Assembly (NCBI GenBank): GCA_022683945.1
Contig: JAJHSH010000049.1
Span: 12,681 to 76,680, forward strand
DNA: 64,000 bases
Reading direction: 5' to 3'
Origin: Candidatus Acetothermia bacterium
GTDB taxonomy: Bacteria > Bipolaricaulota > Bipolaricaulia > RBG-16-55-9 > DRXL01
The notes under the pieces: generated by a model
Database searches by the model: none
What the model saw: only the letters and a program-made list of their open reading frames with translations
Told to the model about the DNA's origin: nothing
Program-made: the position numbers and the translations under genes
Shown: in pieces, positions 4,008-56,365 of the stretch
How positions within the stretch are numbered: position 1 is the first letter of the stretch
Layout: the number at the start of each line of letters is the position of its first letter

Positions 4008-5537
4008 TTAACTATTCGCTGACCGAGAGAATCCCCCAAGCTGTGTCAATCCCAAATAGAGCGCTGTGCCACAGAGCACGGCAGCACTCACCAGCACCAG
4101 CTCCGGCAGAGCGCTCAAAGAGCGTACGAGCAGAGCTACGGTCGCCCCCATCAAGAGGGCAGCCCCCGCCCTCTTCGCTATCTCCGGGAGAATAGGACGC
4201 AGCAGAGCGATTTTCAGTCGTCTCTGGAGGAGCACCAACAGCAGGAGCGCATTAGCGATTCCCGCGAGAGAAGTGGCTAAAGTCAAGCCTCCCACTCCCA
4301 ACGGCCCGACGAAGAGATAATCTAGCCCAACGTTGAGCGCTACGGCTGCGCCTCCGACGAAGACGGGCGTGCGCGTATCTTGCAGCGCATAGAAGGCCCG
4401 CGTCAAGAGATAGACGAGCGCATAGCCTGCAAGCCCGGGGAGAAGCCCCAGCAGCGCATACAGAGTTCTCTGGGTATCTTCTGGAGTGAACTGCCCGTGC
4501 TCAAAGAGCAGTCTGATCACGGGTTCTGCGATAGCCCCAAGCCCGATAGTCGCCGGCAGGACGATAAACGCCGTCAGCTTGATGCCCCGCTGGAGCGTCT
4601 GCGCGAGGGCTTCTCTTTCGTGAAGCGCAGCGTGTTGAGAGAGCTGGGGCAAAATAGCATTAGCAATAGAGACAGCAAAAAGCCCTAAGGGCAACTGAAA
4701 GAGTCGCACGGCGTATTGCAACGCCGAGACGCTGCCCTCGGCCAAGTGCGACGCCAATTTGTTGTCCACGATCACATTAATTTGAAAGATCGCCAGCCCG
4801 ACAATAGATGGGAGCATTAAGAGGCAGAGCTTTTTGAGTTGCTCATCGCGCAGATTGAATTCAGGGCGAAAGCGCCAGTGGTCTCTCAGATAGGGCACTT
4901 GAAAGAAGAGTTGGGCCACGCCCCCGATAAGCACCCCAGCCGCGAGCGCGTAGACCGGCTCCGCGAAGAAGCCCACGAGAGCGACAGTAGCTAGAACAAA
5001 CCCTAGATTAAAGAGCACCGGGGCGAACGAGGGTGCGAAGAAGCGCTCATAGCTGTTGAGCACGCCCATCAAGATCGCCGCGATCCCCATCAAGCCAATA
5101 AAAGGAAATACGATTTGAGCCAACTGAATGGCCAGAGACTGTTCTTCTCTAGAGAAGCCGTCGGCGAGAAAGGGCACATAGAGCGGCGCTAGGAGAATTC
5201 CTAAGAGAGAAAAAAAGGGAAAGAATAAAAGAGCGACAGTGAGAACGTTGTTGGCAAAACGGGTGGCGCCGTTCACGCTCTCGCGCGAGAGTCTTTCGGT
5301 GAAGAGGGGCACGAACGCGCTGGAGAGAGCGCCCTCGGCCAAGAGCCTGCGCAACATATGGGGGATCATAAAAGCGATGAGATACGCGTCGTACGCACGA
5401 CTTGCCCCGAAGAGATGGGCGATCAGAACGTCGCGCACCAGACCCAAGACGCGACTGAGCGCCGTCGCGCCGGAGAGCGTCAAAATATTTTTCAGTAAGC
5501 TGTCTTTGGGAGCAGTGTAAGTCTTTATCGCGTGCAT
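4008..5537 (-). CDS. murJ: Lipid II flippase MurJ (MviN)
   Basis: 509-aa polytopic membrane protein. The N-terminus LLKNILTLSGATALSRVLGLVRDVLIAHLFGAS is typical of MurJ. Confidence 0.85.
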   Translation of the reverse strand: MHAIKTYTAPKDSLLKNILTLSGATALSRVLGLVRDVLIAHLFGASRAYDAYLIAFMIPHMLRRLLAEGALSSAFVPLFTERLSRESVNGATRFANNVLTVALLFFPFFSLLGILLAPLYVPFLADGFSREEQSLAIQLAQIVFPFIGLMGIAAILMGVLNSYERFFAPSFAPVLFNLGFVLATVALVGFFAEPVYALAAGVLIGGVAQLFFQVPYLRDHWRFRPEFNLRDEQLKKLCLLMLPSIVGLAIFQINVIVDNKLASHLAEGSVSALQYAVRLFQLPLGLFAVSIANAILPQLSQHAALHEREALAQTLQRGIKLTAFIVLPATIGLGAIAEPVIRLLFEHGQFTPEDTQRTLYALLGLLPGLAGYALVYLLTRAFYALQDTRTPVFVGGAAVALNVGLDYLFVGPLGVGGLTLATSLAGIANALLLLVLLQRRLKIALLRPILPEIAKRAGAALLMGATVALLVRSLSALPELVLVSAAVLCGTALYLGLTQLGGFSRSANS

Positions 5538-5542
5538 GGAGG

Positions 5543-7186
5543 TTATCTGGGTATCAGGGCCAAGGCTGCGGCGATGGGGCGTCGGCTGCCGATCAGCGTT
5601 CTCTGCGCGCCTTGGCGAAAGAGCAGCGCGCTGGAAGAGCCGCCGTCGAGGGCCAGCGCATCGCGCGCGCCCAGAGCCTTCATCAGCGAGGCCAGAGTCT
5701 GTAAATCCACTCCTACGCTGGTGCTGTCTTTGACGACGGTGACCAAGAGCAGCTCGTCGGATTCTGTGAGGGCGAAGACGCTGCGCGCGGCGAGCGCGCG
5801 GGCGAACTCGTCCGAAAAGCTTTCGGCTTTGATATCGAGTACGATCTGACCGTCGCGCAGCAACAACGGACCCGCGCTGACGGCCTCGCGGACGAAGGGC
5901 AGCGCCGGCTCCAGTCTCTGAGAGATCTCGATGCGCTCGCCGGGGCGCACTCCTCCTAGGCGACTACGGGCCGCTCCCGTCGCCACCAAGAGCGTCGTCT
6001 CCCCATCGGGCAAGACGATACTGTTCTCGCTCACGCTCAGCACTAAATTGCCGCGCAAGCGCACAGCTTTTATGGGGAGATCTCTGCGTATGGGTAGCGC
6101 ATATCGGTTCGTGTACAGAAAGAGCCCGTTGGTGTGGGGAGGGCGGTTTACACCGTCAATTGCGACGCGCTGGCCCAGAATATAAGCGCTGAGCGTCAGC
6201 TTGGGCGCGACAAAATCCAGATCGCCGAAGAGCGTGATCGCGAGGGTGCCGCGCCGGCCATGGGGAGCGCTCTGGAGCAGGCCGTCTTTGATTAAGAGTC
6301 CGATGGGGAGTTGGCTCTGCGGGTCAAAAAAATTGGCGTTGATGGCGGCAAGGGCTTGGGAGGCCAGCTGATCGAGCGGGGCGAGCGAGCCGATCCCATC
6401 GGGCGGCAAGAGCGTCACCAAGCGGTAGCGCTCCTTCCAATGAGAGATCTTGAGATAGCGTAAACTCACCGGGCCGGCGAGCGTGACGGCGCGCGCGTGC
6501 AGATAGAGAATATCTTCGTTGATGCGCGTCTGGGTCTCTGTGCGCAAGAGCGCTCTGGACTCTGAGGGCATCGGTGCGACGATGGGGCGCAGCCAGAGGC
6601 TGAACTCGCGCTCCGATTCTATGACCGTTGCTTGCCAACTTGTCGTTGCGTTGATGGGGAGATGGGCGCGCAGCACGCCGGGCTCATCGGGTGAGAACCT
6701 CACACCCTCACCCCATCCCTCTCCCTGCGAGGGAGAGGGGGAATGGACGTGAAAGAATCTTATCGTCACCGGTTGAGCTTTGGTCTGAAGCTCGAAGGGC
6801 ACTCTGGCGTCAAAAGTGAAGATCACACTGTTATGAGAGAGCGTGCGCACCGCGCGCAGCCGCGCCGGCGCGCTCCAAAGATGATACTCACTGCCCAGTT
6901 TAAATAAGCGAATATCAGCGATCTGGGCCAGTCTTTCTAGCTCTATATAGAGCGTCGGGCCGCGCGCGTGCAGCTCTTCGGATTTCAAAGAGAGCCTGCG
7001 TCCCAGTCCCCAGCGCAACAACACACTGCCGTCATCGTCTCTGATGAGATCCATGCCCAAGCGGCGGGCTATCTCGTGTAGGGAGACCAGAGTCTTGCTC
7101 TCTTGTATGAGTATGGGGACTCTGAGCGTATAGCCGTTGAGAAAGAGCTTGGGGGCTTGGGCAGAAGTGTTGGCGGCGCAGAGCAA
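5543..7186 (-). CDS. Phosphodiester glycosidase family protein with an N-terminal copper-amine-oxidase-like stalk domain. The start is uncertain; a signal peptide is encoded upstream of the TTG start.
   Basis: C-terminal NAGPA-like LDGGSSSAL motif. Upstream in-frame sequence KRFFILLGLGVLLCAANTSA looks like a signal peptide. The gene contains an in-frame palindromic-element insertion (SPSPSQGEGWGEG). Confidence 0.6.
   Translation of the reverse strand: MLCAANTSAQAPKLFLNGYTLRVPILIQESKTLVSLHEIARRLGMDLIRDDDGSVLLRWGLGRRLSLKSEELHARGPTLYIELERLAQIADIRLFKLGSEYHLWSAPARLRAVRTLSHNSVIFTFDARVPFELQTKAQPVTIRFFHVHSPSPSQGEGWGEGVRFSPDEPGVLRAHLPINATTSWQATVIESEREFSLWLRPIVAPMPSESRALLRTETQTRINEDILYLHARAVTLAGPVSLRYLKISHWKERYRLVTLLPPDGIGSLAPLDQLASQALAAINANFFDPQSQLPIGLLIKDGLLQSAPHGRRGTLAITLFGDLDFVAPKLTLSAYILGQRVAIDGVNRPPHTNGLFLYTNRYALPIRRDLPIKAVRLRGNLVLSVSENSIVLPDGETTLLVATGAARSRLGGVRPGERIEISQRLEPALPFVREAVSAGPLLLRDGQIVLDIKAESFSDEFARALAARSVFALTESDELLLVTVVKDSTSVGVDLQTLASLMKALGARDALALDGGSSSALLFRQGAQRTLIGSRRPIAAALALIPR
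6699..6745. repeat. GC-rich compound palindromic element, copy a, in-frame within the glycosidase gene
   Basis: cacaccctcacccc-atcc-ctctccc-tgcga-gggagaggggg. Encodes HSPSPSQGEGWGEGV on the minus strand. Confidence 0.8.
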
Positions 7187-30344: not shown

Positions 30345-30364
30345 CCGGATGCTGAAGCATCCGG
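30345..30364. repeat. GGATGCTGAAGCATCC hairpin repeat, copy 1
   Basis: Near-identical 27-nt stretch recurs at 34024. Confidence 0.6.
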
Positions 30365-30449
30365 CTCAGCAGATGGAAGCCCGCTCAAGCGGGCTGTGAG
30401 CGTGCTTGAGCACGCTTGCACCTGGTGAGCCGGTGGATTCATCCACCGG
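30345..30449 (+). other. Cluster of four consecutive stem-loops between the small ORF and coaD, possibly a terminator array or a small structured RNA
   Basis: ccggatgctgaagcatccgg; agcccgctcaagcgggct; agcgtgcttgagcacgct; ccggtggattcatccaccgg. Confidence 0.5.
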
Positions 30450-34023: not shown

Positions 34024-34042
34024 CGGATGCTGAAGCATTCGG
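34024..34042. repeat. GGATGCTGAAGCATTC hairpin repeat, copy 2, downstream of uvrB
   Basis: cggatgctgaagcattcggctgagca; compare copy 1 at 30345. Confidence 0.6.
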
Positions 34043-34058
34043 CTGAGCAACCATAGGG

Positions 34059-34131
34059 TGCCGAGGGGCGGACTCGAACCGCCGACACCAGGATTTTCAG
34101 TCCTGTGCTCTACCAGCTGAGCTACCTCGGC
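34059..34131 (-). tRNA. tRNA-Phe (GAA)
   Basis: Cloverleaf on the reverse complement: acceptor GCCGAGG/CCTCGGC, anticodon loop CUGAAAA, T-loop GGTTCGAGTCC. Confidence 0.9.
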
Positions 34132-49946: not shown

Positions 49947-50945
49947 CTAGCGTTTCTCAAACTTCTGCACGCGATGGTTATCCGAGTCGGCGATATAGAC
50001 CAGAGCATCTAAGACAGCCACGCCGCGCGGGCGTTTGAACTGTCCGGGTCTAGTGCCTTCGCCTCCCCAAGCGAGCACAAAGTTACCCTGAGCATCGAAG
50101 ATCTGAATGCGATGATGCCCCTGATTGGCAACATAGAGATTATTGGCGCTGTCCAATGCTATATGATAAGGTCGGCGCATCTGCTCCGGTCTATCTCCGG
50201 GGCCGCCGAGTCTCGCTAAAAATTTCCCGGCAGCGTCAAACTTTTGAACCCGATCGTTGCGATTATCAGAGAGATAGATATTCCCGGCGCCGTCCAGAGC
50301 GATCCCCGCGGGGACGTTGAACTGGCCGTCGCCTGCGCCGGGGAGACCGAACTTGCCCAAAAATCTCCCTGTGGGACTGAACTTCTGCACGCGATGGTTG
50401 AACCCATCGGTGATATAGAGATTGCCCTCTTTATCAAGAGCGATGCCTACGGGGATGCTGAACTGTCCGTCACCGCGCTCTAAGGGGCCCGCGCCGTCGG
50501 GATCCACGCAGCCTTTGCCGATCTCTTTGGTAAAGGGGTTCTGGCCGTAAAGGTCACAGAGAGTTCCCCATTTGGCTAAGAATTTTCCGCTCTTGTCAAA
50601 CTTCTGGATACGATGATTGAACGAGTCTGCGATATAGATATGGCCCTCTTTGTCTAGAGCGATTCCGCCGGGGGAGTCGAACTGCCCGTCGCCCAAGCCC
50701 TTCGCGCCCCATTTCGCTAAAAATCTTCCGTTGGCGTCGAATCGCTGAACGCGATGGTTCTCCGTGTCCGCGATGTAGATCGTCCCGTCGTCGGCAACGG
50801 CGATCCCTTCGGGAGCTTTGAACTGGCCGTCGCCGCTGCCCTCGCGTCCCCATTGCGTAACGAAGCTGGGCGCGCTCATCTGGGAGAGCGCGAGTAGAGT
50901 CGCCAGAAGAACTGTTGTGAGGCCGAGATAGAGAGATTTGTGCAT
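49947..50945 (-). CDS. Secreted NHL-repeat beta-propeller protein. The ORF is open to 51023; the likely start is MHKSLYLG after a gagggagg RBS.
   Basis: Six repeats of the type IYIADTENHRVQRFD / LYVANQGHHRIQIFD. Confidence 0.75.
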   Translation of the reverse strand: MHKSLYLGLTTVLLATLLALSQMSAPSFVTQWGREGSGDGQFKAPEGIAVADDGTIYIADTENHRVQRFDANGRFLAKWGAKGLGDGQFDSPGGIALDKEGHIYIADSFNHRIQKFDKSGKFLAKWGTLCDLYGQNPFTKEIGKGCVDPDGAGPLERGDGQFSIPVGIALDKEGNLYITDGFNHRVQKFSPTGRFLGKFGLPGAGDGQFNVPAGIALDGAGNIYLSDNRNDRVQKFDAAGKFLARLGGPGDRPEQMRRPYHIALDSANNLYVANQGHHRIQIFDAQGNFVLAWGGEGTRPGQFKRPRGVAVLDALVYIADSDNHRVQKFEKR

Positions 50946-50976
50946 GGTGCCTCCCTCTTGGTTTGGAGTCTGTTTA

Positions 50977-52131
50977 TTATAGCGCTGCGGGAGTCGAGGC
51001 TGCCAGTTGACGGAAGATTTCAATCAGACGCTCCGCGCAGCGCTCGATGCTCATCTCGTGGGCCTTGCGCTTCGCTCCCGCGCGGAGCTTCTGTCGTTCT
51101 TGCTCGTCGCGCAAGAGCGACAAGATCGTTTCAACAAAGTCCTCTTCGGAGACCAAAACGCCCGTCTCGTCGGGGAAGACGACCTCTTGGACGCCCATCG
51201 CGCGCACGGCCACCGTTGGAAGCCCGGCGGCCATCGCTTCCATCAAGACCAGCCCTTGCGTCTCGGTCTTGGACGCGAAGAGAAAGAGATCCGCAGCGCG
51301 ATAGTGATCTACCAACTCTTCTCTAGGGATAAATCCCGTAAAGATCACGCGATCTCCCAATTGTAGTCTCTGCGCAAGCTGTTCCAAATGCTCACGATAG
51401 GAGCCATCGCCTGCGAGCACCAAGCGCAAAGCTCGCTCTCCTCCCCAGCGATCCAAGAGGGCACGAAAGCTCTGTAACAGAAAATCTAAGTTTTTCTCGG
51501 CTCCCAGCCGGCCCGCATAGAGCAAGAAAAGCTCTTGGGGGGATAGCCCCAGCTTTTGGCGCGCGTCGAATCTCAGAGGGCGCTCATAGGGCTCGGTATC
51601 GACTCCAAACGGGAGCAAATAGATGGGCTTGTGTACGCCGTAGCGCAAGAGCTCCGCACGCATGGCTTCCGATGGAACAGTAGTCGCGTCGCAGCGGTTG
51701 CAGAAGGCTGCGCTCAGTCGTTCGGTCATCTGGCGCGAGGGGCGAACGAGTCGCGGGAGATAGTGCAGATACTCCGTGAAGAGCGTGTGGTACGTATGAA
51801 TATGTGGCAGCTTATATCTTCTTGCTACGCGGAGCGCCAAGAGCCCCATAGAGAAGGGCGTGTGGCTATAGACGGCTTCCAACTGTGCAAAGACAGAGAA
51901 GGCCCGACGGTCATAGGGGATGACGATGCGGCTCTCTTTGTGGAAGCGCGCGTTGACCGCAGGAAAACGAAAGATATGGCCGTTCTGGTGACGCTGCTCG
52001 CGAAAATACGCGGGCGCGAAGATATAGACTTGGTGTCCTTGGCGCATGAAGACGCGCTCCAGATCGCAGACGATGCTGGTCACGCCGTTGATCTGCGGTG
52101 TAAAAGTATCTGTAAAGATTCCTAGTTTCAT
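50977..52131 (-). CDS. GT4-family glycosyltransferase
   Basis: MKLGIFTDTFTPQINGV ... EAMAAGLPTVA, the GT-B C-terminal motif. Confidence 0.8.
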   Translation of the reverse strand: MKLGIFTDTFTPQINGVTSIVCDLERVFMRQGHQVYIFAPAYFREQRHQNGHIFRFPAVNARFHKESRIVIPYDRRAFSVFAQLEAVYSHTPFSMGLLALRVARRYKLPHIHTYHTLFTEYLHYLPRLVRPSRQMTERLSAAFCNRCDATTVPSEAMRAELLRYGVHKPIYLLPFGVDTEPYERPLRFDARQKLGLSPQELFLLYAGRLGAEKNLDFLLQSFRALLDRWGGERALRLVLAGDGSYREHLEQLAQRLQLGDRVIFTGFIPREELVDHYRAADLFLFASKTETQGLVLMEAMAAGLPTVAVRAMGVQEVVFPDETGVLVSEEDFVETILSLLRDEQERQKLRAGAKRKAHEMSIERCAERLIEIFRQLAASTPAAL

Positions 52132-52652
52132 AGAGTATCCTCCGCACAGAGCGGACAGAACTCACTCTCGCAGAGCGTACTGCAACGTGGGCAGGGCTTC
52201 CAGCCCCACTCGCGTCGCGCTCGCTCTATGCGCTTGGCCGTGCTCATCAATCGTTTCAGATCTTCACGCAGTTCGGCGCTCTCGATCTCCGTTGCGAGCT
52301 GCTCGATCTCGCGCTCTTCTTGAGGCAGCAACGGAACCCGCGCGAGCGAGAACGGCGGCTCTCCCTTCGGCTTAGATTCTACCACAAAACGGACTTCGCG
52401 CACGCGCTCCTCGCCGAAATGCTCGTTGAGCTTCTTGCGAAACTCTGCGCGCATGAGAGTGAACTCATGCTGAAAGACATGACTGGTTACAGCCACAAAG
52501 AGCACGCCGTTCTGCACATAAAGCGGCTCGGTTATTTTAGCCATGCGTGCGCCGACGACCTTGGGCCAGTGCAGCGCCGGCTCCTGCGCACGATACTCTT
52601 CGCCCAAGCCGTGACGACGAAAGAGCTTCTCCATCAGTATTGCTTCGATCAT
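52128..52652 (-). CDS. DUF721 (DciA-like) protein with a C-terminal zinc ribbon
   Basis: Located immediately after recF, as is typical for DUF721. C-terminal CPRCSTLCESEFCPLC. Confidence 0.6.
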   Translation of the reverse strand: MIEAILMEKLFRRHGLGEEYRAQEPALHWPKVVGARMAKITEPLYVQNGVLFVAVTSHVFQHEFTLMRAEFRKKLNEHFGEERVREVRFVVESKPKGEPPFSLARVPLLPQEEREIEQLATEIESAELREDLKRLMSTAKRIERARREWGWKPCPRCSTLCESEFCPLCAEDTL

Positions 52653-53740
52653 AGTTTCTCTGTGATCTGTCCCGCTGTGATCAGATAGAGACGACGAGCG
52701 CCTCGGCGCAACTCGCTGGGCATCTCTTCATCGGTAGAAGCTGTGTGCGTCAAGAAGATCTGCAGATTTTTAGGCAAAAGCTGGAGAAGCCGCTGGGTGC
52801 GAGCGCGATCCAATTCGGAGAGCACGTCGTCCAAGATTAAGATGGGGTAATCGTGAAAGCGTTCGTAGTGGAGCTCGACTTGTGTCAGCAAGAGGGCGCA
52901 GAGCACCGATTTCTGTTCGCCTTGAGAGCCAAAGCGCTTTACGTCGTGTTCGTTGAGGTCGAAGCGCAGGTCATCGCGCTGAGGCCCCACGAGCGCTTGT
53001 CGGCGTCGCAACTCTGCGCGGCGGGCCTTGGCCAGTAATTGCGCCAGATCCCTTTGGAGATCGTCGTTCTGAGAGAGCGCTGTTTCATAGTGCGCGCGTA
53101 GTTGTGAGGTCTGGTCGGAGATCTGCTGGTAGTGCTGGGAGAGCTTTTCGTTGATCTTGTGCAGATATGACCGTCTTTGGGCGACCAGCCGTGCGCCGCG
53201 CTCGCTCAGTTCTTCGTCATAAACGTCCAGCAGATCCATATTAGGGCGCTCGGAGCGCAGGAGCGCGCTCTTGCGCCGCAGGATCTGTTCGTACTCCAAA
53301 AGCGTATGTTTATAGGTACGATGCAGATCGGCGATGCTGCGATCTAAAAAGCGTCGGCGCTGCTCCGGGCTGCCCTTGATGACTTGTAGCTCATCGGGCG
53401 TGAAGAGCAGGACGCGCAGTAGAGCGCTCAGCTCGCTCTGGCTCTTCTTCTCGTGATTGAGTTCTATGGTCTTCGCTCTGGCGCTGCCGTTGAGATGGAG
53501 ACGGATGTGATCTCCGCTGAGAGAGAATTCTAAGAGCGCTTCGCTCTGATCCCAGCTGATCAGATCGCGCTGACGTTCTCCCTTAAGCGGCCAGCCCTTG
53601 GCGGCGTAATAGATCGCCTCGCAGAGGTTGCTCTTGCCCGCGGCGTTGGGCCCGGCGATGATATTCAGCCCGCCGTCGGGAGCGAGATCTATAGAGACCA
53701 AATTGCGGACATGGCGCAAGACGATGCGATCTAATTTCAT
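52649..53740 (-). CDS. recF: DNA replication and repair protein RecF
   Basis: Walker A GPNAAGKSNLCEAI, signature FGSQGEQKS, Walker B LILDDVLSELD. Confidence 0.95.
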   Translation of the reverse strand: MKLDRIVLRHVRNLVSIDLAPDGGLNIIAGPNAAGKSNLCEAIYYAAKGWPLKGERQRDLISWDQSEALLEFSLSGDHIRLHLNGSARAKTIELNHEKKSQSELSALLRVLLFTPDELQVIKGSPEQRRRFLDRSIADLHRTYKHTLLEYEQILRRKSALLRSERPNMDLLDVYDEELSERGARLVAQRRSYLHKINEKLSQHYQQISDQTSQLRAHYETALSQNDDLQRDLAQLLAKARRAELRRRQALVGPQRDDLRFDLNEHDVKRFGSQGEQKSVLCALLLTQVELHYERFHDYPILILDDVLSELDRARTQRLLQLLPKNLQIFLTHTASTDEEMPSELRRGARRLYLITAGQITEKL

Positions 53741-53753
53741 CTCGGTTTTTATT

Positions 53754-54836
53754 TTACTTGGGATAGGCGGGAGCGGCCAACTTGAGAAGATACTCTCTCA
53801 GCGCGTCGATCTCGGAGCGAAAGAGCGGGCTTTCCGCCAGCGCTTTGGCCTTGCGATAGGCGTACATAATAGTGCTGTGATCGCGCCCGCCGAAGGCCGC
53901 GCCCAGCGCGGGGAAGGAGCTTTCGGTCAGCTCGCGCGCCAGATAGATCGCTAATTGTCGGGCCTGCGCGACGCGCCGCTCGCGGCTCTCGCTCTCCAAG
54001 TCTTCTGTGCGAAGCTGATAGTGCCGGGCAATCTCTCTCTTAACAGTTGCGACATCGAGGACCAGAGGGCGCTCGACCTCGGCGGGCAGCAACTCAAAGA
54101 CCAACTGCGACGTGATCTCTTGGCTATGAAGCGCGGCGCTCGCGGCCAGACGGATGAGCGCCCCTTCGAGCGCGCGCACGTTGGTGCGCACGCGCTGGGC
54201 GATCAATTCTAAGATCGCTTCGGGGATATCCAAGTTATGGTCTTGGGCTTTGGCACGGAGAATAGCGAGTCGCGCTTCAAACGGGGGCGGCTGAATATCG
54301 GCGACCAAGCCCCAGCGAAAGCGTGAGACCAGTTGTTCTTGCAGTTGGGGCAGCGCCTCTGGAGAGCGATCCGAAGCAAGAACAATCTGTTTACCCCGTT
54401 GATGAAGCTCGTTAAACGTATGACAGAGCTCTTCTTGCAGGGCTGCTTTTTCTCTCAAAAAGTGCACATCGTCCAGGAGCAAGAGATCGGCGCTGCGATA
54501 GATCTTGCGGAATTGCGCGGTCTTGTTCTCTTGGATCGCGCGATAGAACTCTGTCGCCAAGCGCTCGCAGGTGCTATAGATAATATGGAGAAAGCGATGC
54601 TGCTGCAGCGCGCCGTTGCCGATGGCATGGAGCAGATGGGTCTTGCCCAGCCCCGGAGCGCTGTAAATATAGAGGGGGTTATAGGCGTGTGCCGGGTGCT
54701 CTGCCACAGCCAGCGACGCCGCATACGCGAGACGATTGTTCTCCCCGCGAACAAAACGCGCGAACGTATAATCTTCGCAGAGCGTCGGTGCCGTGACAGG
54801 GGCCCATGACTCCTTGAACTCCGCTCCTGTTCTCAT
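53754..54836 (-). CDS. dnaA: DnaA-like initiator consisting of AAA+ domain III and DNA-binding domain IV only; it lacks N-terminal domains I and II
   Basis: YTFARFVRGENNRLAYAAS, GLGKTHLL, DDVHFL, VLASDR, VSRFRWGLVADIQPPPFEARLAIL, GGRDHSTIMYAYRK. Only about 22 aa precede domain III. Confidence 0.8.
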   Translation of the reverse strand: MRTGAEFKESWAPVTAPTLCEDYTFARFVRGENNRLAYAASLAVAEHPAHAYNPLYIYSAPGLGKTHLLHAIGNGALQQHRFLHIIYSTCERLATEFYRAIQENKTAQFRKIYRSADLLLLDDVHFLREKAALQEELCHTFNELHQRGKQIVLASDRSPEALPQLQEQLVSRFRWGLVADIQPPPFEARLAILRAKAQDHNLDIPEAILELIAQRVRTNVRALEGALIRLAASAALHSQEITSQLVFELLPAEVERPLVLDVATVKREIARHYQLRTEDLESESRERRVAQARQLAIYLARELTESSFPALGAAFGGRDHSTIMYAYRKAKALAESPLFRSEIDALREYLLKLAAPAYPK

Positions 54837-54861
54837 CTTGTGCTAACCCCTGTTGCGGTAG

Positions 54862-54893
54862 GTAGAGAGAGCATAGCAGAGATTTCGCCCGGC
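54862..54893 (-). promoter_or_regulatory. Putative sigma70 promoter for the dnaA-like gene (TTGACA, ~18-nt spacer, TATGCT on the minus strand), overlapped by a 10-bp inverted repeat cagagatttc/gaaatctctg
   Basis: Hexamers read from the reverse complement. The inverted repeat arms lie at 54870-54879 and 54919-54928. Confidence 0.35.
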
Positions 54894-55279
54894 TGTCAAG
54901 TGAGGATTCCAGAGAGAGAACGCTGAAATCTCTGTTAAAGAGGGCGTTTTTGTGCAGAGCCTGCGCTGGGCATCCGACGGCATTTGAGCAAGCGGGATTT
55001 TTTCAAAGAACGATGACCATCTTGGGCGCACCAGATGATCGCTCTTTGATCTTCAGTCTGAAGTGCAGGAAGTTGATCACCTTTAGCAAAACGTTCTCTG
55101 CAAGAGAGAAAACGCTTGGGACGCTTGCCGGTCGCGCATTGGAGAGAGCCTAGATAAGAGCACAATCTGAAAAGATTCCCCAACGTCCCATCAATTAGCG
55201 GACGCAAGAACGTCAGACAACTTCTATTGCGTGTTAAAGCGATTCATCACGGTCTCTATAGCTGGTTTGTTAGGCGCTC

Positions 55280-55525
55280 TTAATCCGGCCAAGTCTCTTC
55301 GAGGCGCTCCATCTCCTGAAGCAGGTCCTTGATCTTCATCTGTAGCCATTCCAACTGGACTGCCATCTCCGCCCAGTGGTTGATGTAGTCGTCGCTACCG
55401 GGAGATTGCTGTTTCAAAGCATCAAGCTCTACTAAATAGCGATGGCTTAGTTCAGCAACTTCGTGAGAGATCGTATCCAGCAGATCAGATGTCCATTTTA
55501 TAGATCTAGTTTTCGTAGCTTTCAT
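55280..55525 (-). CDS. Hypothetical 81-aa coiled-coil protein (second gene of the mini-insert)
   Basis: ORF with a 3-nt gap to the upstream 65-aa ORF. No known motif. Confidence 0.35.
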   Translation of the reverse strand: MKATKTRSIKWTSDLLDTISHEVAELSHRYLVELDALKQQSPGSDDYINHWAEMAVQLEWLQMKIKDLLQEMERLEETWPD

Positions 55526-55528
55526 CCA

Positions 55529-55726
55529 TTACCTCCTACGGTGCTGCAACCGTCGCTCCAGTTTCTCGATCTGTGCCTGAGCATTGGCAATCTGCTTGCG
55601 CCACAGTTCGATACGGGCCTCATTCGGGTAGGGTTTCGCCTGTTCGGCTCGAATCTTGGCCTCATGTGTAGCGATCATCCGTTGGTGTCCTTCTATTCGC
55701 TTACGGATATCTCTGGCTATCCCCAT
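55529..55726 (-). CDS. Hypothetical 65-aa basic coiled-coil protein (first gene of the mini-insert), possibly leaderless
   Basis: A TTGTCT-18-TATACT promoter-like sequence ends 8 nt before the ATG. C-terminus RRLQHRRR. Confidence 0.35.
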   Translation of the reverse strand: MGIARDIRKRIEGHQRMIATHEAKIRAEQAKPYPNEARIELWRKQIANAQAQIEKLERRLQHRRR

Positions 55727-55813
55727 CGCGGTCAGTATACTTTAAATCCCCACCCTTAGACAAGTGCCTTGGGGATCATTAGATCATCTTGAGGAAGTTT
55801 TTGCAACCAACCC

Positions 55814-56365
55814 TCACGGCAAATTAAAGCGATTCATCACGGTTTCTATGTCACTCTCCACGAAGCACCCTATCGCTGCCGCCGCGCGAGCAAGAAACTC
55901 TGAGAGCTGCTTGGCTTCGTCCTCGCTGAACTCTTCCAGGACATAATCTGCCAGTTCGCTCAAGGGCTGCTCCGAGCCGATCCCCAGCTTCAATCTGGGA
56001 ATCTCTTGGGTCTGCAGCGCTTCGATAATAGATAACATTCCGTGATGCCCTCCCGCTCCGCCCTGGGCTTTCGCGCGCATCTGGCCAAAGGGGAGCGAGT
56101 AGTCATCATAGACGATGAGCAATTCTTGCGGCGTGACGGAGCAGCGCTCGCAGACTTCTTCGACAGAGATCCCGCTGAGATTCATATAGACTGAGGGCTC
56201 CACGACGAGCGTTTCGCCTACACGATAGATTACGGAGAAGTCGTGCTCTTGCTTGGCGACGCCAGCAAGTCTCGACAAAAACGCGCGCACCGCCATTCGG
56301 CCTAGATTGTGGCGCGTGCGTTCGTAGCGCTTGCCGGGATTGCCCAAACCGACAACGGCTTTCAT
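55814..56365 (-). CDS. pth: Peptidyl-tRNA hydrolase
   Basis: MKAVVGLGNPGKRYERTRHNLG ... HNG catalytic region GGHHGMLSI. Confidence 0.95.
   Translation of the reverse strand: MKAVVGLGNPGKRYERTRHNLGRMAVRAFLSRLAGVAKQEHDFSVIYRVGETLVVEPSVYMNLSGISVEEVCERCSVTPQELLIVYDDYSLPFGQMRAKAQGGAGGHHGMLSIIEALQTQEIPRLKLGIGSEQPLSELADYVLEEFSEDEAKQLSEFLARAAAAIGCFVESDIETVMNRFNLP

Follow-up and report, generated by a model that had tools for sequence, protein, structure and literature searches.

We analysed a 64,000-nt stretch of a Candidatus Acetothermia contig (GenBank JAJHSH010000049.1, positions 12,681 to 76,680; hereafter the window) and found that foreign DNA carrying two small genes, here termed A and B, is inserted into the 3′ end of pth, the essential gene for peptidyl-tRNA hydrolase. 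The target gene is preserved with a substitute end (Leu-Pro-stop), and its old 3′ fragment (ending Thr-Gln-stop) lies displaced at the far end of the insert as a direct repeat. The insertion dates to an ancestor of the present Acetothermia species. The reading that we favour, and to which we give about an even chance, is that the insert is a cargo-only remnant of a mobile element flanked by attachment (att) sites, similar to a cis-mobilizable element (CIME), and that its cargo is possibly an addiction-type pair.

The repeat-flanked insert at the pth 3′ end

The first-pass annotation of the window had reported a 26-bp sequence present twice, 590 bp apart, with one copy encoding the end of Pth (IETVMNRFN) and the other being an out-of-context duplicate of the same codons. 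Each of these points was confirmed (Table 1). The copies are 25/26 identical with a spacing of 590 nt, and their similarity ends at 26 nt in the window and at 27 nt in a sister strain type (98.8% identical, i.e. 1.2% apart, over the locus), with none on either side. The last 11 codons of pth consist of repeat copy 1, which is coding sequence for a conserved C-terminal motif of Pth, and the new tail, which reads TTG TCG TGA in the sister strain. The displaced tail behind copy 2 forms the end of a spurious open reading frame (ORF; 55224..55349).

Table 1. Positions of the insert, its parts and the adjoining genes in the window
Feature	Position	Strand	Details
pth (peptidyl-tRNA hydrolase, 183 aa), intact	55814..56365	-	Pfam PF01195, E = 7e-54, full length
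Repeat copy 1 (pth-proximal)	55824..55849	-	TTAAAGCGATTCATCACGGTTTCTAT; encodes I-E-T-V-M-N-R-F-N(AA-) of functional Pth
New pth tail, from insert side	55814..55823	-	(AA)T TTG CCG TGA = N-L-P-stop
Upstream spacer of insert	55727..55813	-	~50 nt, then cassette promoter
Cassette promoter	55763-55734	-	TTGTCT-18-TATACT; -35 at 55763-55758, -10 at 55739-55734 (promoter scan)
Gene A	55529..55726	-	65 aa, pI 11.4; helices 3-29 and 36-64
Gene B	55280..55525	-	81 aa, pI 4.8; helices 4-38 and 45-78
Spacer, B stop to repeat copy 2	55260..55279	-	20 nt
Repeat copy 2 (distal)	55234..55259	-	TTAAAGCGATTCATCACGGTCTCTAT; displaced, non-functional copy of same pth codons
Displaced original pth tail	55224..55233	-	(AA)C ACG CAA TAG = N-T-Q-stop
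dnaA (360 aa), next gene downstream, outside insert	53754..54836	-	PF00308 and PF08299

The single G>A difference between the copies is synonymous, lies in copy 1 and is specific to the strain type of the window; the sister strain keeps the G and has a separate C>G change in copy 2. Because the two strain types differ at separate copy positions, the ancestral repeat was a perfect 26-mer or 27-mer. We regard it as extremely improbable that the repeat arose by chance or belongs to a structured RNA, the latter having been proposed as a case that would speak against an insertion. Nothing beyond the existence of the repeat points that way. By chance no such repeat is expected: shuffling the window 100 times with its dinucleotides preserved gave no match. 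Rfam had no hit at E ≤ 1 in 54700-56000, and the sequence codes for a conserved Pth motif.

The two minus-strand ORFs of 65 and 81 aa described in the annotation were confirmed, as was the TTGTCT-18-TATACT sequence just before the first ATG. The ORFs are separated by a gap of 3 nt, and an AGGAGG site precedes B. The -10 box ends 7 nt ahead of the gene A start codon. Homologous loci and a Meiothermus relative described below show the same distance, so that the mRNA of gene A is probably leaderless. A and B are the sole genes between the repeats, so that the statement that the insert has no integrase held, and no recombinase domain was found in either of them.

Word-indexed searches of 5.8 billion proteins yielded six relatives of A and nine of B. 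An exhaustive profile search of 1.84 billion cluster representatives matched B to 15 proteins in total, eight of them with E < 1e-10. All source-named members were from Candidatus Acetothermia or Bipolaricaulota. The AELSHRYL motif and a C-terminal W-P-D are invariant in the B alignment; M-G, H-E-x-K-I and I-A-N-A are examples of invariant positions in that of A. Between the window and the nearest cassettes, the ratio of nonsynonymous to synonymous divergence (dN/dS) was 0.04-0.07 for both genes. Judged from these comparisons, A and B are real genes under strong purifying selection.

AlphaFold modelled both proteins as confident two-helix hairpins, with a predicted local distance difference test score (pLDDT) of 92.8 for A and 86.2 for B and with the turns AKPYPNE in A and SPGSDDY in B. 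Structure prediction and library searches had been suggested as checks of the two proteins; both hairpins were obtained, and no known family was matched. The earlier prediction of a coiled-coil pair thus stood as far as two helical hairpins are concerned, and the libraries returned coiled-coil noise and no named family.

Distribution and relocation of the A-B cassette

The annotation had also asked for further copies of the small proteins. The window holds a single copy, and we found A-B in at least eight unrelated neighbourhoods: pth-dnaA (window), alr-fdhA (loci L001, L002 and L090), HerA-like ATPase-ABC-F (L003, L004), ubiE-pheT (L005, B only), urocanase-PKD protein (L086, promoter and B only), rpsB-P450 (L087-L089), rpe-guanylate cyclase (L179, L180, as a single 148-aa A-B fusion) and a site adjoining a CoA-transferase gene (L181). 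The shared cassette spans the -35 box (55763) to exactly the B stop codon (55280), where homology with the other loci stops. Its DNA identity to the window is 88.9% in L090 and 86.4% in L001, and the promoter is conserved in both.

An empty site was found for the alr-fdhA context. Seven contigs (L182-L188), which fall into two clusters of close FdhA relatives, encode an FdhA that shares 85-88% identity with the L090 protein. In all of them alr and fdhA converge directly on each other, their stop codons overlapping (near 5527-5570) and no sequence intervening. The insertion in L090 comprises ~950 nt, consisting of a 97-aa ORF and A-B, and is not accompanied by a duplication; the B stop codon overlaps that of fdhA in a TTAA palindrome. 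At this junction (4418-5246 in L001, 4490-5447 in L090), A is preceded by a UPF0150/HicB-like gene in L001 and by the 97-aa hydrophobic ORF in L090. As different small genes fill the same slot in two lineages, the alr-fdhA junction is a small variable hotspot.

We consider it very unlikely that A-B is not mobile, i.e. that it is an old, vertically inherited pair whose neighbourhoods differ through loss of synteny and that the repeat at pth is an unrelated local duplication. Within the L090/L001 lineage the cassette has indeed been inherited vertically, because its synonymous divergence (dS) between the two loci equals that of the flanks (0.82 for B, 0.82 for fdhA and 0.96 for alr), and synteny downstream of pth differs in relatives (hslU instead of dnaA). 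Against this account, B matched only 15 clusters in the 1.84 billion representatives, whereas FdhA has many orthologues in the same clade; the seven contigs from two FdhA clusters have precise empty sites; and two copies of the cassette are independently bracketed by repeats. Moreover, the dS between the window cassette and L090 is 0.49-0.60, lower than that between L090 and L001, yet the window cassette lies at a different locus. The cassette has relocated between chromosomal sites. Taken together, the sequence comparisons indicate that A-B is a rare, lineage-restricted mobile operon.

The closest Pth relatives in genome and metagenome contig collections are only 64-65% identical. Housekeeping genes of the window differ from those of one such relative, L091, by a dS of 1.3-3.4. 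L091 and the cassette-bearing L002 come from the same metagenome assembly; because their identity as one organism could not be proved, the case for horizontal transfer of the cassette is strong but not closed. Housekeeping genes common to the window and the cassette-bearing loci, which were sought for calibrating divergence, were not found. P0046 was considered as a candidate for an empty alr-fdhA site in the window genome and rejected, as it belongs to another assembly.

A second copy of the cassette is flanked by a repeat. In L003 and L004, a 95-aa ORF lies together with A and B between two copies of the final 130 nt of the HerA-like gene, a stretch that takes in the stop codon and the 7 nt after it; the copies are spaced 1340 nt apart. 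The 130-nt repeat was perfect at its formation, because the later changes seen in a comparison of two strains are only synonymous and in the functional copy. Upstream of A in this 1.3-kb insert (L003 4050-4205) there are long alternating purine-pyrimidine tracts and palindromes, e.g. GCGCGCACGCGCGCGTACGCGCG and TATACGCGCGCGATATATAATACACACGCACGCGCATGTATA.

Origin of the pth insert

A promoter-bearing A-B operon entered the last codons of pth and left a perfect repeat of 26-27 nt. The gene therefore stays functional with its substitute two-codon tail, and the old tail is stranded beyond the insert. We propose that the operon is the cargo of a parent element that recombined with pth through a short sequence matching the gene's 3′ end exactly, either site-specifically or in a Campbell-type event; the later loss of its recombination genes would have produced a remnant unable to move by itself.

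An insert with att-like repeats is a known kind of thing, and the two-protein family is unannotated. At the e14 site of Escherichia coli, icd is accompanied by an icdC fragment (PMC13626634). As with e14 and phage 21 in icd, the element in the window lies within the 3′-terminal part of a housekeeping gene that is functional with an element-side end, and the original fragment remains as a pseudogene at the far end, giving direct repeats (PMC13626634). Unlike e14, which is ~15 kb long, has its own integrase and excises, the insert measures 590 bp and has no recombinase, and no excision was observed; the 26-nt repeat, the Bipolaricaulota host and the pth target are further differences. CIMEs are defined by having kept attL and attR and lost the genes for integration and transfer (PMC5704250), and our insert likewise carries cargo without integrase or transfer genes (PMC5704250). 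It is far smaller than the CIMEs described, however, the other copies of its cargo are without such repeats apart from the HerA site, and its own repeats are putative att sites.

The link to a larger element comes from viruses. When viral contigs were scanned with the alignment of A, two proviruses (L189, L190) were retrieved that encode a 61-aa A-like protein, which is annotated in Meiothermus ruber and shares 45% identity with A. In L189 (1-911), a partial 3′ fragment of a type-II tRNA at the contig end is followed by 170 nt, which hold a TTGACA-17-TAATAT promoter, and then by the A-like gene, a gene for an 88-aa acidic helical partner ending in LPDEG, and an XRE-type helix-turn-helix (HTH) gene. 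Beyond the HTH gene and convergent with it lie genes for a small coiled-coil protein whose C-terminal segment is hydrophobic and for a large beta-helix protein; from sequence and position, without a family match, we read these as putative phage lysis and tail-fibre genes. In L190 (7400-8464), the same module, here with an in-frame stop in the A-like gene, comes after two partial tRNA fragments. These fragments are in opposite orientation and 340 nt apart, which suggests stacked or decayed integrations.

An A-like gene beside a prophage att site fits the view that the insert is the remnant of a larger element. The annotation had left open whether the insert is a minimal mobilisable cassette or such a remnant; the latter agrees with the att-proximal A-like gene, and the former was not borne out by a single copy found at the same place in 21 contigs. 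Of its further suggestion, a site-specific insertion that regenerates the gene end, insertion and regeneration were verified. A site-specific event is one possible route: no integrase and no element mimicking the pth end were found, and a repair duplication gives the same picture.

Several results weigh against an att-flanked remnant with addiction cargo. No integrase or excisionase was present among the ten mid-sized ORFs of the window that were scanned (174-404 aa), and the pth-end mimic had no match in viral contigs, where no autonomous element carrying it was found. No parental integrative and conjugative element, integrative mobilizable element or prophage is known to share the att site. 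Seven of the nine searched loci, representing six of the eight contexts, lacked a flanking repeat above chance; no judgement was possible for L181. The two repeat-flanked inserts have only A-B in common, and the only core motif shared by the 26-mer and the 130-mer is the 9-mer GTGATGMAT, which is at chance level by estimate. No relatives of A or B were found in GenBank phages or plasmids. The acidic partner in Meiothermus gave E = 0.08 against B in hhalign, so that homology is not demonstrable; the Meiothermus module is a positional analogue, with true homology for A only. Pfam (searched with single sequences and all family members), NCBIfam, PHROGs, PADLOC, a PDB profile search and Foldseek against PDB were negative for A and B or returned coiled-coil noise, and the folds of both are generic hairpins.

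To the same side belongs the search for an empty pth site, of which there is none in public data, where no relative exceeds 64-65% Pth identity. A reconstructed ancestral Pth (..NRFNTQ) had no exact match in 15 billion proteins. The comparison of the pth-dnaA region among relatives that the annotation had proposed gave a divided answer: L006, L007 and L091 lack the cassette and contain the 26-mer once, but downstream they have hslU instead of dnaA. In L006, which is labelled Fraserbacteria, pth and hslU are separated by an ORF for a 226-aa multi-pass membrane protein (4551-5231) that L091 does not have; the 3′ flank of pth thus varies among relatives too. The junction predicted for an empty site is ...GTGAC-ATAGAGACCGTGATGAATCGCTTTAA-CACGCAATAG..., and that for an excised circle is ...AACAAACCAGCT-ATAGAGACCGTGATGAATCGCTTTAA-TTTGCCGTGAGG....

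As the main rival, the duplications could also have arisen by illegitimate capture. In this possible, if rather doubtful, account a free A-B fragment was taken up during repair at a staggered break or by template switching, fill-in of the overhangs made the repeat, neither a dedicated element nor an att site was involved, and selection kept those events that preserved pth. It would agree with flanking duplications that vary in length (0 nt at alr-fdhA, 26-27 nt at pth, 130 nt at HerA) and were perfect when formed, with a conserved unit that is a bare transcription unit lacking a recombination site, hairpin or inverted repeat, and with the absence of an integrase and of a core common to the two repeats. 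In bacteria, however, it is unusual for fill-in to duplicate as much as 130 nt. Both duplications cover exactly a gene 3′ end and leave the gene intact, which is typical of att-type integration, although selection could yield the same, and the distant A-type gene and its acidic partner are prophage cargo close to an att site.

A related alternative, which we rate as rather unlikely, is that A-B is an unrecognised two-hairpin addiction family or a minimal selfish cassette that spreads without a dedicated recombinase. Such a cassette would insert at gene ends via host recombination or repair, giving long, perfect duplications of variable length (26 and 130 nt) and leaving the target gene intact.

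Activity of the insert as a miniature satellite is slightly less probable still. The 590-bp unit would be mobilised in trans by an integrase encoded elsewhere, with the 26-mers as attL and attR. Its flanking repeats and operon are intact, and CIMEs can be mobilised in cis or in trans by related elements (PMC5704250). Yet the unit is present as a single copy, and all 21 conspecific contigs that were read, representing two strain types, carry it at the same site; the repeat copies are already diverging; and neither an integrase among the ORFs scanned in the 64-kb window nor an empty-site allele was found.

Some established classes were rejected as candidates. An insertion sequence or miniature inverted-repeat transposable element does not agree with the lack of terminal inverted repeats, duplications of 0, 26 and 130 nt and a single copy in the window. 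An integron gene cassette was rejected as the inverted repeat is absent and the operon has its own promoter; neither the pth insert nor the HerA insert contains terminal inverted repeats or attC-like structures. A dif/Xer-type site was ruled out by inspection, the repeat having no dyad symmetry.

If the insert is an att-flanked remnant, it would be among the smallest described, in a phylum known only from metagenomes, and A and B would be an unannotated protein family pair behaving as mobile addiction cargo. The cassette would also allow gene flow in Bipolaricaulota to be traced. Perfect duplications of 26 and 130 nt were made with no visible recombinase; the current view of integration and toxin-antitoxin biology is unchanged unless a recombinase-free mechanism proves true.

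Possible function of the pair and other features of the window

The first-pass annotation had suggested that the two proteins might be a toxin-antitoxin-like pair. Opposite charges, one fusion and one-sided decay speak indirectly for this suggestion, and the lack of homology to a known family speaks against it. A is basic and B is acidic (Table 1). As A and B are naturally fused in one lineage (P0019), they may act as a complex. A is broken or missing with B intact at four independent loci: by a 1-nt deletion causing a frameshift in L001/L002, by loss of A in L005 and in L086, and by an in-frame stop in L190. The reverse, A intact with B lost, was not seen among the loci read on both sides. 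This count of four against none is small, and one of the cases is a 1-nt deletion in a metagenome assembly, which also weakens the proposal of an addiction cargo.

Toxin-antitoxin genes of other kinds lie nearby in L001 (UPF0150/HicB-like) and L087 (BrnT/CopG-like). One-sided decay, charge complementarity, neighbouring toxin-antitoxin genes and the att-proximal position in a provirus together fit an addiction-type pair. Our tentative view, held at somewhat less than even chances, is that A would be harmful and B its antidote. The two hairpins may form a four-helix heterocomplex in which acidic B neutralises the very basic A. Such addiction logic would explain both the survival of the module as the element decays and its patchy spread.

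The pair resembles type II toxin-antitoxin systems in being a tiny two-gene operon with its own promoter, opposite charges and a patchy mobile distribution, in lying often beside other toxin-antitoxin genes and at prophage ends, and in its one-sided decay and single fusion. It differs from them in that neither protein is related in sequence or fold to a known toxin or antitoxin and neither has a recognisable DNA-binding or enzymatic domain. With the WXG100 proteins EsxA and EsxB it shares adjacent genes, small helical hairpins and an expected four-helix bundle; in contrast to these, A (65 aa) and B (81 aa) are shorter and have no WXG motif or Pfam match. The flanks examined showed no type VII secretion genes.

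Downstream of the insert, dnaA has its own promoter-like site (54899-54870). Neither oriC nor DnaA boxes adjoining the insert were found above chance, and GC skew gave no usable signal. In the dnaA region (52128-54836), the 360-aa DnaA consists of the ATPase and C-terminal DNA-binding domains and has no N-terminal domains I-II. The gene is directly followed by recF and a DciA-family gene, without dnaN, and no cluster of TTATCCACA-type boxes or switch in GC skew is visible around it.

The window contains a second 26-nt direct repeat, CGGATGCTGAAGCATYCGGCTSAGCA, whose copies (24/26 identical) lie at 30346-30371 and 34024-34049, 3678 nt apart. Each copy contains a hairpin; the second lies 8 nt past the 3′ end of a tRNA-Phe gene (34057-34131, minus strand), and at 30346-30420 there are three hairpins in a row. 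Since housekeeping genes (a coaD-like cytidylyltransferase gene and uvrB) lie between the copies, this repeat looks like a dispersed terminator or a hairpin similar to repetitive extragenic palindromic (REP) elements, and not like an island. Internal repeats of 130-141 nt at 49947-51023 belong to a gene for an NHL-repeat beta-propeller and are ordinary coding sequence of a repeat protein.

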